Translations under genes and position numbers: made by a program | DNA from: Eledone cirrhosa | Lineage: Eukaryota | Length of the DNA: 64,000 nt | Assembly (NCBI GenBank): GCA_964016885.1 | Contig: OZ024750.1 | Coordinates: 50,344,001-50,408,000 of the forward strand | Direction: 5' to 3' | Shown: positions 42,973 through 43,650 of the stretch, one piece after another | Layout: every line of letters starts with the position of its first letter | Numbering within the stretch: the first letter of the stretch is position 1 | The notes under the pieces: generated by a model | The model's input: the letters and a program-made list of their open reading frames with translations, nothing else | Databases searched by the model: none | Told to the model about the DNA's origin: nothing

Positions 42973-43644
42973 GATTATGTAACTGTCTTTATCCCATTGC
43001 AGAAACTAATTAGTTGGAGTGAAAATTTAAGTAAGTAAGTAAAAAATTTTTTAAAAAATTTTTTTAAAAGATATTTTCTTATTTTACGTCTTTTATATTA
43101 TTGTTCTGCACCCTCCTGCATTGAACCACCTAGGTACTATGACATAACCTGTGTATTTGCTGGCATGGACGTGCATCTGTGCGCCTATGTTAGTTGATAT
43201 ATTAAATTATCTATATTTATCTCCAAATCACTGATTTGTCGAGCAAACCTGCCAAAACCACTTCAAAATTTTTTTTTGGGGTGTTAGTAGGCGTCAGTCA
43301 TCTTACCATCCCATTCCTTCTAACTAGCCTCTATGTCACGTGATTGATTCTTTAGAATCGGCCATTTGACTGGAAGCAGTGAGAATTTCAGTATATAGAA
43401 TCCAGTCCTCGCCTAGCTGTTCTTTCTACCGAATTATTATTTTTATATGAGCCGCCAGTGTCCGCGCATTGCCTGGAGGCTCAGCTGAGAATAGACTCCC
43501 TGATGACGCAATGAATTCTCGACAGTTGGATTATGTAACTGTCTTTATCCCATTGCAGAAACTAATTAGTTGGAGTGAAAATTTAAGTAAGTAAGTAAAA
43601 AATTTTTTAAAAAATTTTTTTAAAAGATATTTTCTTATTTTACG

Positions 43645-43650
<6 letters not shown>
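42973..43650 (+). mobile_element. Family A HHR tandem repeat (retrozyme-like), about 1.2 units, period 556 bp
   Basis: A 3' half HHR ends at 43020 and a complete HHR spans 43495-43576. Homologous to 56908-58340. Confidence 0.85.

Follow-up and report, generated by a model that had tools for sequence, protein, structure and literature searches.

A non-coding repeat of 520-560 nt, present in about ten thousand copies in the 3.0-Gb genome of Eledone cirrhosa, carries a type I hammerhead variant whose long stem II is formed by two covarying helices. The repeat is likely a non-LTR retrozyme, which would cleave itself as RNA and would be copied into TA microsatellites by Penelope-like enzymes. The coordinates below are those of the window, the whole 64-kb stretch of DNA that was analysed, unless another sequence is named.

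The repeat family and its copies

Three insertions of the hammerhead repeat family, with seven copies of the motif, lie in the window, and are distinguished by the base of stem II and by their period:

42930-43654: first insertion, GCAATG/CATTGC, period 556
53566..54815: second insertion, GAAAGG/CCTTTC, period 524, head-to-head, E2 on the left and E1 on the right
56895..58343: third insertion, GTAATG/CATTAC, period 540, head-to-head, E2 on the left and E1 on the right

Here, E1 and E2 are two fixed ends of the family, described further below. The first insertion has the following parts:

42918-42937 (left part) and 43650..43678 (right end): (TA)n target microsatellite
42930..42975, minus strand: short inverted arm, the reverse complement of 43175-43220 (97.8% over 46 bp)
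42973..43020, plus strand: 5'-truncated half ribozyme with the 3' side of stem II, GAAA and stem III, and without CUGAUGA
43016..43571, plus strand: whole non-coding unit of 556 nt between two cut sites, predicted to be highly folded on this strand
43099..43220, plus strand: "tail" of about 120 nt between E1 and E2, with a long hairpin that ends just before E2
43572..43654, plus strand: 3' part of the plus arm, stopping at fixed end E1

The inverted arm terminates at E2, where it adjoins (TA)n, and overlaps the plus arm by 3 nt, and the half ribozyme has the equivalent of its cut site after 43015. A preliminary description of this DNA had taken 42973..43650 as one family copy, and the span does hold a whole ribozyme at 43495-43576, whereas the one upstream is the truncated half. 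The three periods that it gave agree with the sequence, as 42973-43098 equals 43529-43654 at 100% (556), the cores at 57658 and 58198 are 540 apart, and the minus-strand tandem 53749-54272 has the period 524. It had counted three subfamilies, and many more are present genome-wide; six basal stem II types recur, namely GCAATG, GTAATG, GTAAGG, GAAAGG, GGAATG and GGGATG.

A pattern that joins the core to the stem III palindrome, CTGATGA-N44-58-GAAACTAATTAGT, gave 9,066 matches in the genome, as against none for the reversed control. This is a minimum copy number, as the search requires CTGATGA and copies with CUGACGA escape it. The clade with GG at the base of stem II gave 1,936 matches, and 71 of the 100 that were listed have CUGACGA and are absent from the CTGATGA count, from which a total of about 10,400 copies is estimated. 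Copies of the window's subfamily in the C1 loci compared are 97.7-99.6% identical to it over 472 nt, and the subfamily is young. Units are arranged head-to-tail with a type I hammerhead in each, as in other non-LTR retrozymes, and measure 510-571 nt (151 units, from overlapping loci). No protein is encoded, the longest stop-free frame of a unit dimer being 52 codons, and an LTR-type layout was not seen in the sampled family loci. The sampled copies are mostly dispersed insertions rather than arrays. A long tandem array of the window's subfamily lies at about 301.31-301.33 Mb of C1 (L004-L020) with a spacing of about 555 bp, and at least 17 pattern matches fall there at multiples of that distance; a broken C.A pair in stem II has spread to several of its units. 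Among sequencing runs, X5 and X6 contain many family variants and X8 and X9 few contigs; the latter two are labelled as two other organisms and, against 43100-43600, have three contigs each that are 90-99% like the repeat family, possibly from carried-over DNA. Three runs presumed to be of RNA matched the poly-A/T patch alone, which speaks neither for nor against expression.

The window is rich in other repeats as well. A SINE-like repeat of about 190 bp has at least seven copies (408-577, 14205-14396, 20874-21066, 32186-32385, 33771-33948, 41887-42266 and 44494-44682). Four broken frames, at 3066-5246, 5183-6786, 17009-17407 and 27443-30219, are presumably, judging from their motifs, those of a Helitron helicase, an L1/Tx1-type RT, a mariner transposase and an RTE-type LINE.

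The hammerhead core and its class

The elements of the ribozyme in the first insertion, all on the plus strand and with two more tentative features placed last, are these:

43495..43576: type I hammerhead variant, stem I 43495-43499/43572-43576, CUGAUGA 43500-43506
43507/43557, 43558-43561, 43570 and 43571: remaining core, namely C.A, GAAA, U16.1 and U17
43508..43556: long stem II, made up of a 6-bp helix at the base (43508-43513/43551-43556), then an internal loop of 7x7 and a helix further out (distal, 43521-43528/43536-43543)
43561..43570: stem III, the 10-nt palindrome ACTAATTAGT, predicted to pair between two copies
43571/43572: predicted cut between these positions, GUU site
43487..43491: GAGAA, 5' strand of a possible loop I-loop II pseudoknot, partner TTCTC 43516-43520
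43312..43317: CATTCC, a possible alternative partner of the stem I 3' strand in a predicted off-state, weak

The core C3 U4 G5 A6 N7 G8 A9, G12 A13 A14, A15.1-U16.1 and H17 is complete, and the three helices follow one another in CGS order with stem I open. Non-circularly permuted hammerheads, with blocks in SGC or CSG order, have been described (PMC10085705). Such a scrambled order was rejected here, as the covarying stem II joins CUGAUGA to the downstream GAAA and then comes the site, which is the CGS order. Between subfamilies, none of 12 core positions varies, compared with 116 of 240 other columns (Fisher P 5e-4), and N7 varies as U or C; this conservation is inflated and partly circular, since core-containing patterns were used to retrieve the copies. 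The stem III palindrome has eight inner positions without change between subfamilies. Stem II is backed by covariation; for stems I and III there is only conservation, to which stem I adds one paired indel. The preliminary description had core and palindrome retained throughout; this holds for the seven window copies, apart from C15.2>A in the minus-strand copies near 53745 and 54269. One further departure is at the core at 58198, which has T instead of C beside it.

A strict canonical type I consensus is not what is found, as C.A stands in place of a paired 10.1-11.1 and stem II is long. The C.A is present beside the core in 97 of 99 rows, despite its C lying in a CpG. The motif is therefore filed as a putative type I hammerhead variant rather than the canonical form, and a search of the 64-kb window against Rfam gave no matches at gathering scores, and only chance matches at 43300-43700. 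There are parallels for the irregularity next to the core. The ribozyme of the axolotl retrozyme Amex2 is described with a U.U mismatch at the base of stem II, and cleaves, better as a dimer (PMC7229834), and the hammerheads of Penelope-like elements (PLEs) are described with an extra nucleotide after A9 (PMC4209133).

Other hammerhead families in the window have T.T at the position of the stem II base. One is a second hammerhead repeat family with a period of about 458 at 48746-50189 and 58722-59727 (cores at 48985, minus, and 59006, plus), which has a short stem II with T.T at the base and CTAG in stem III and is arranged both inverted and in tandem. Two more motifs resembling type I hammerheads, from further families, lie at 23657 (plus) and 39064 (minus), the former with an even longer stem II insert.

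Does the ribozyme cut?

The strongest rival to a self-cleaving retrozyme accepts the mobilization by Penelope and holds that the fold no longer cuts and survives because its structure signals to the reverse transcriptase or stabilizes the RNA, with the multimeric arms as uncut read-through transcripts. The C.A mismatch and U17 are in its favour, as is the predicted fold of the monomer, in which structures that bury or open the core are favoured by 1.3-8.0 kcal/mol in six of six copies. Of 214 insertion arms, 177 read through at least one predicted cut site and 57 through at least two, so that circular or uncut multimeric templates are needed. Low activity in vitro is also reported for PLE hammerheads (PMC4209133), and one of nine predicted Xenopus retrozymes cleaved in the account of Li, Clavereau and Pollet 2026 (10.64898/2026.07.22.740005). 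Against this, the only core position that varies between subfamilies is N7, which is free in catalysis, though retrieval favours that result, and Amex2 cleaves in spite of its own mismatch. The palindrome has a predicted duplex at -9.0 kcal/mol compared with +1.5 for the hairpin, and would be far more stable between two molecules, which fits a dimer model; the folding program does not give the active dimer of the window copy as the minimum.

The other evidence against a silent fold comes from where arms begin. A modest pile-up of 5' ends is seen just past the predicted cut, with 21 of 214 at +0 to +19 and 3 at -20 to -1, and 6 of 64 arm 5' ends at newly fetched loci also lie just after it. Once the choice of loci is conditioned on, the 5'-end hazard is 7/78, against 0.047 overall (P=0.065), and it is equally high in a neighbouring bin and in a stem II bin. 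As a sign of cleavage in vivo the pile-up is suggestive only, and stalling of the RT at a helix is an alternative cause. On balance a fold that has lost its activity is an unlikely explanation, and a cutting hammerhead is the reading followed below.

Covariation in stem II

The preliminary description rested its case on changes that keep stem II paired. Its helices are there as it gave them: GCAATG at 43508-43513 pairs with CATTGC at 43551-43556, GTAATG/CATTAC stands after the cores at 57658 and 58198 and GAAAGG/CCTTTC after that at 54684; its positions 57653, 58193 and 54679 are the starts of stem I. Covariation was assessed with an R-scape-like script of our own, not R-scape itself, that applies a weighted G-test with APC. 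In the null alignments, the substitutions given by parsimony were replayed along the tree, each at a column drawn at random. One of 133 rows was dropped and the others were clustered at 98.5% to 99 copies, giving a main alignment of 263 columns and 33,670 column pairs.

The top three of all these pairs are the fifth and second basal pairs of stem II and one pair of the distal helix. Their all-versus-all E values are 0.20, 0.50 and 0.79, and the per-pair P values are 5.8e-6, 1.5e-5 and 2.3e-5, or about 1e-4 to 5e-4 when multiplied by the 21 pairs of the named structure. For 49 whole units the two basal pairs rank first and second of 130,816 (E 0.23 and 0.29). A first run, on 61 rows left after 17 of 78 were removed as chimeric, placed the distal pair third and the basal pairs fourth and fifth, behind two column pairs that do not pair (E 0.45). 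The claim had been staked on significance in a larger alignment, and it holds for the named structure, while the all-versus-all E of 0.2-0.8 misses E<0.05.

The individual events point the same way. On internal branches the basal helix has five double changes, one wobble change and no breaks, and the distal pair has gone from U-A to C-G three times. Three of the five basal events were already contained in the data of the preliminary description; two of them, and the distal ones, are new. The further subfamilies supply a new G-C pair type and a second independent G-C>U-A, and these, together with the first ranks of stem pairs in a phylogeny-aware test, uphold its claim of selection on an RNA helix. 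Of 735 cells counted, 97.0% are paired, which none of 500 shuffles reaches, and slid controls give 40-49%. Both stem II helices are recovered unaided by RNAalifold, and the second basal pair, one side of which is free in the search pattern, is complementary in 100 of 100 and 99 of 100 matches listed. The distal extension of stem I and a hairpin upstream of the ribozyme had no significant covariation in the registers tested.

A second rival would make the matched changes a by-product of shared descent or of events at the DNA level, such as hairpin-templated repair or the homogenization of satellites, and would leave the RNA unselected. That independent events are few and the all-versus-all E is above 0.05 speaks for it, as does the broken C.A pair spread through several units of the long C1 array. 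That broken pair is, however, what one would look for if RNA were under selection and arrays amplified as DNA were not, and the copies are for the most part dispersed insertions. One pair has been through four different Watson-Crick types and two others have changed repeatedly and independently, flanking loops have not been rendered complementary, and the wobble intermediates are G-U on the ribozyme strand. The same strand also folds better as a circular monomer, with z from -2.6 to -8.5 against -0.7 to -4.9 for the other and the sense value lower in nine of nine units (12 shuffles each); the unit 43016..43571 has -7.9 in sense and -4.7 in antisense (12 shuffles). An origin without RNA selection is thus very improbable.

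The stem II helix, as read from the aligned copies, is real and under selection, with a limited statistical margin because the independent events are few. Covariation is evidence of a conserved helix and says nothing on catalysis. The consensus fold of the whole unit has 12 double changes as against 0-1 in slid controls, and 62 breaks over 146 pairs, so that most of this fold is not established.

Loop II and a candidate pseudoknot

Contrary to the free divergence of the loop asserted in the preliminary description, loop II contains the second covarying helix and conserved flanks. The four pairs of this helix that were counted all have double changes, and in two clades it is often capped by UUCG, a stable tetraloop. 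On the 5' side UUCUC is kept at 83-97% per position, and UUUAYYC is conserved on the 3' side. Relatives with a short stem II were ruled out as real forms, the 45 matches being almost entirely scattered one-off deletion copies, and a search for relatives with a different stem III loop gave 8 matches against 5 in the control, none of them family-like.

The UUCUC may pair with GAGAA just 5' of stem I. In 35 rows 95% of the cells are paired, and one clade has altered both sides by way of a G-U step (G-C>G-U>A-U). This happened once; in some copies the pairing is lost (UUCAC), another possible partner for GAGAA lies 3' of stem I, and the same alignment has 18 conserved helices of at least 5 bp, some by chance. 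The odds of this putative pseudoknot being real are put at a little better than even. The pseudoknot of the sCYDV-RPV hammerhead is inhibitory. The (+) hammerhead of this RNA is described with a long, segmented helix II, as here, and requires a double hammerhead (PMC1636495), but belongs to a plant virus satellite and not to a genomic repeat. Pseudoknots that link stem I with stem II are reported as common among hammerheads (Perreault et al. 2011, PMC3088659); the present motif may likewise have Watson-Crick contact between its two stem regions, the difference being that here it is drawn from conservation plus one stepwise change.

Insertion anatomy and the link to Penelope

A total of 188 arm ends were classified, 86 at E1 and 79 at E2. 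E1 lies 70-85 nt past the cut site and E2 about 120 nt further, and both adjoin (TA)n or (CT)n(TA)n. Overlapping loci were dropped before pairings and junctions were counted. Head-to-head pairings join E1 to E2 in 46 of 58 cases and have an unclear or cut-off end in the other 12, with none of E1 to E1 or E2 to E2; one of the 58 is a cross-pairing of two neighbouring insertions in locus L067. Overlap at 107 junctions is mostly 0-5 nt. The insertions of EN+ PLEs are described as partial tandems with an inverted 5'-truncated copy, a tail on one end and a bias to microsatellites (Craig et al., 10.1101/2021.04.23.441226), and the partial tandem, inverted 5'-truncated arm, one-sided tail and microsatellite target are all found here. 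The family's insertions look Penelope-made.

Coding PLEs with intact frames of 753-823 codons are present in the genome, carry a hammerhead directly upstream of the frame and have two ends of the kind seen in the repeat family, which therefore coexists with autonomous PLEs. Among the Atlas neighbours of these coding elements, GIY-YIG is found in 29-50% of members and RVT_1 in 18-92%. Searches of Pfam, with five PLE fragments of the window and one full frame, and of PDB sequences gave no matches. Two coding families, taken from 59,309 RT candidates and represented by 33 loci, were searched for kinship between the repeat and their pLTRs; this gave only short AT-rich matches and no partner that shares sequence with the repeat. 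The repeat family itself lacks the RT and GIY-YIG frame between pLTRs that marks an autonomous PLE.

One coding PLE lies in the window at 8526-13904, with frameshifted RT and GIY-YIG-like frames at 10662-12060 and its own hammerhead at 13664 (plus) and 8751 (minus). It sits in (TA)n with an inverted arm and a one-sided tail, and relatives with the intact 753-823-codon frames exist. Immediately beyond the second insertion, and within its TA tract, the tail of this coding PLE is found again at 54842-54900, adjoined by a 130-bp palindrome (54921-55050) that is built from the hammerhead end of the element.

That the repeat is simply the pLTR of an unsampled autonomous PLE, and its copies truncated PLEs, is the least probable reading of all, since, for all that the ends and tail design are shared with the coding PLEs of the genome and the partner search spanned only two coding families of the 59,309 candidates, units in sampled loci have other units or (TA)n beside them, the family arm still ends in (TA)n at L039, L069, L071 and L086, the four loci where a PLE protein match is close by, and the 151 head-to-tail units are too tight to hold an ORF.

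Relation to known systems

The non-LTR retrozymes of metazoans, as described in PMC7229834 and 10.64898/2026.07.22.740005, are likewise non-coding, AT-rich tandem units with type I hammerheads, a short palindromic stem III, thousands of copies, co-occurrence with PLEs and a highly folded monomer. The present unit of 520-560 nt is above the 150-450 bp given by Cervera and de la Pena 2020 (PMC7229834), but falls inside the range of 51-972 bp that the 2026 preprint reports (10.64898/2026.07.22.740005). Stem II has about 49 nt and two helices here, compared with 4 bp in the canonical forms described for metazoan retrozymes, and fixed E1/E2 head-to-head ends were not found described for metazoan retrozymes in the available text of these two sources.

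The hammerheads of PLE pLTRs, in the account of Cervera and de la Pena 2014 (PMC4209133), share a longer helix II, a helix I of 4-5 bp, an additional nucleotide after A9 and then a G-C pair, a palindromic stem III and families rich in compensatory changes. They differ in that the present family has another such nucleotide, an A, before G12, an extension of loop II that is much longer, and no coding frame. Given that the class is known and that compensatory changes in PLE hammerheads were reported in 2014 (PMC4209133), the covariation alone is unsurprising. As to the insertions, the likeness to those of EN+ PLEs goes with two differences, namely a repeat family without RT or endonuclease and a tail of about 120 nt instead of the 30-40 bp described (10.1101/2021.04.23.441226). 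The coding PLE families of this genome have tails of about 70-95 nt. Outside subscription journals and supplements, no literature was found on hammerheads or retrozymes in cephalopod-like genomes, and the word "ribozyme" does not occur in a 2026 octopus repeat annotation.

A proposed life cycle and its significance

A life cycle for the retrozyme can be proposed as follows. Tandem units would be transcribed on the ribozyme strand, and the hammerhead would cut after GUU, probably slowly as a monomer and better with the palindromic stems III of two copies paired. As in other retrozymes, the monomers would probably be ligated into circles. A Penelope RT/GIY-YIG protein would then nick (TA)n and prime two cDNAs, at E1 and E2, which would run through cut sites and join head-to-head at short overlaps; the ends and overlaps are those observed, and the enzyme is the presumed part. 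With selection acting at the RNA step, the helices would be kept in new subfamilies, and old copies and DNA-amplified arrays would decay.

Most animal retrozyme circles are described without a block to re-cleavage by their own ribozyme (PMC7229834). In the present family, the 3' strand of stem I could pair, in every clade, with a site some 270 nt downstream, which has changed in step with a base gain in that strand. Of the 45 units for which it was scored (4 of 49 were skipped and 2 were mis-anchored), 43 have a predicted off-switch helix that exceeds stem I in strength, and the helix is favoured in 11 of 13 circular ensembles. Compared with the best site in shuffled units, 2-33 of 40 shuffles are equally strong, and the covariation is weak (P 0.007), so the predicted helix is given low odds. 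A wider and tentative proposal, which we think doubtful but worth stating, is that of a regulated retrozyme, in which a pseudoknot-braced stem II and the dimer palindrome would let only nascent multimers be cut, the long-range helix would capture the freed 5' end so that the circle could not re-cut, and two fixed RNA sites would prime the Penelope enzyme on both strands of the TA target.

The family, with some ten thousand copies and many subfamilies, amounts to a natural mutagenesis of an atypical hammerhead with a C.A base, a GUU site and a long stem II. By way of the anatomy of the insertions, its two fixed ends connect a retrozyme with Penelope-type integration, a link that the retrozyme papers argue, in the text available, from co-occurrence and pLTR similarity (PMC7229834; 10.64898/2026.07.22.740005). 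It also bears on how retrozyme circles escape re-cleavage, which PMC7229834, as far as its available text goes, does not settle. If the regulated retrozyme were true, it would be a self-pairing answer to how circles evade the ribozyme that they carry, and would offer a readout, in nature, of Penelope integration with two primers.
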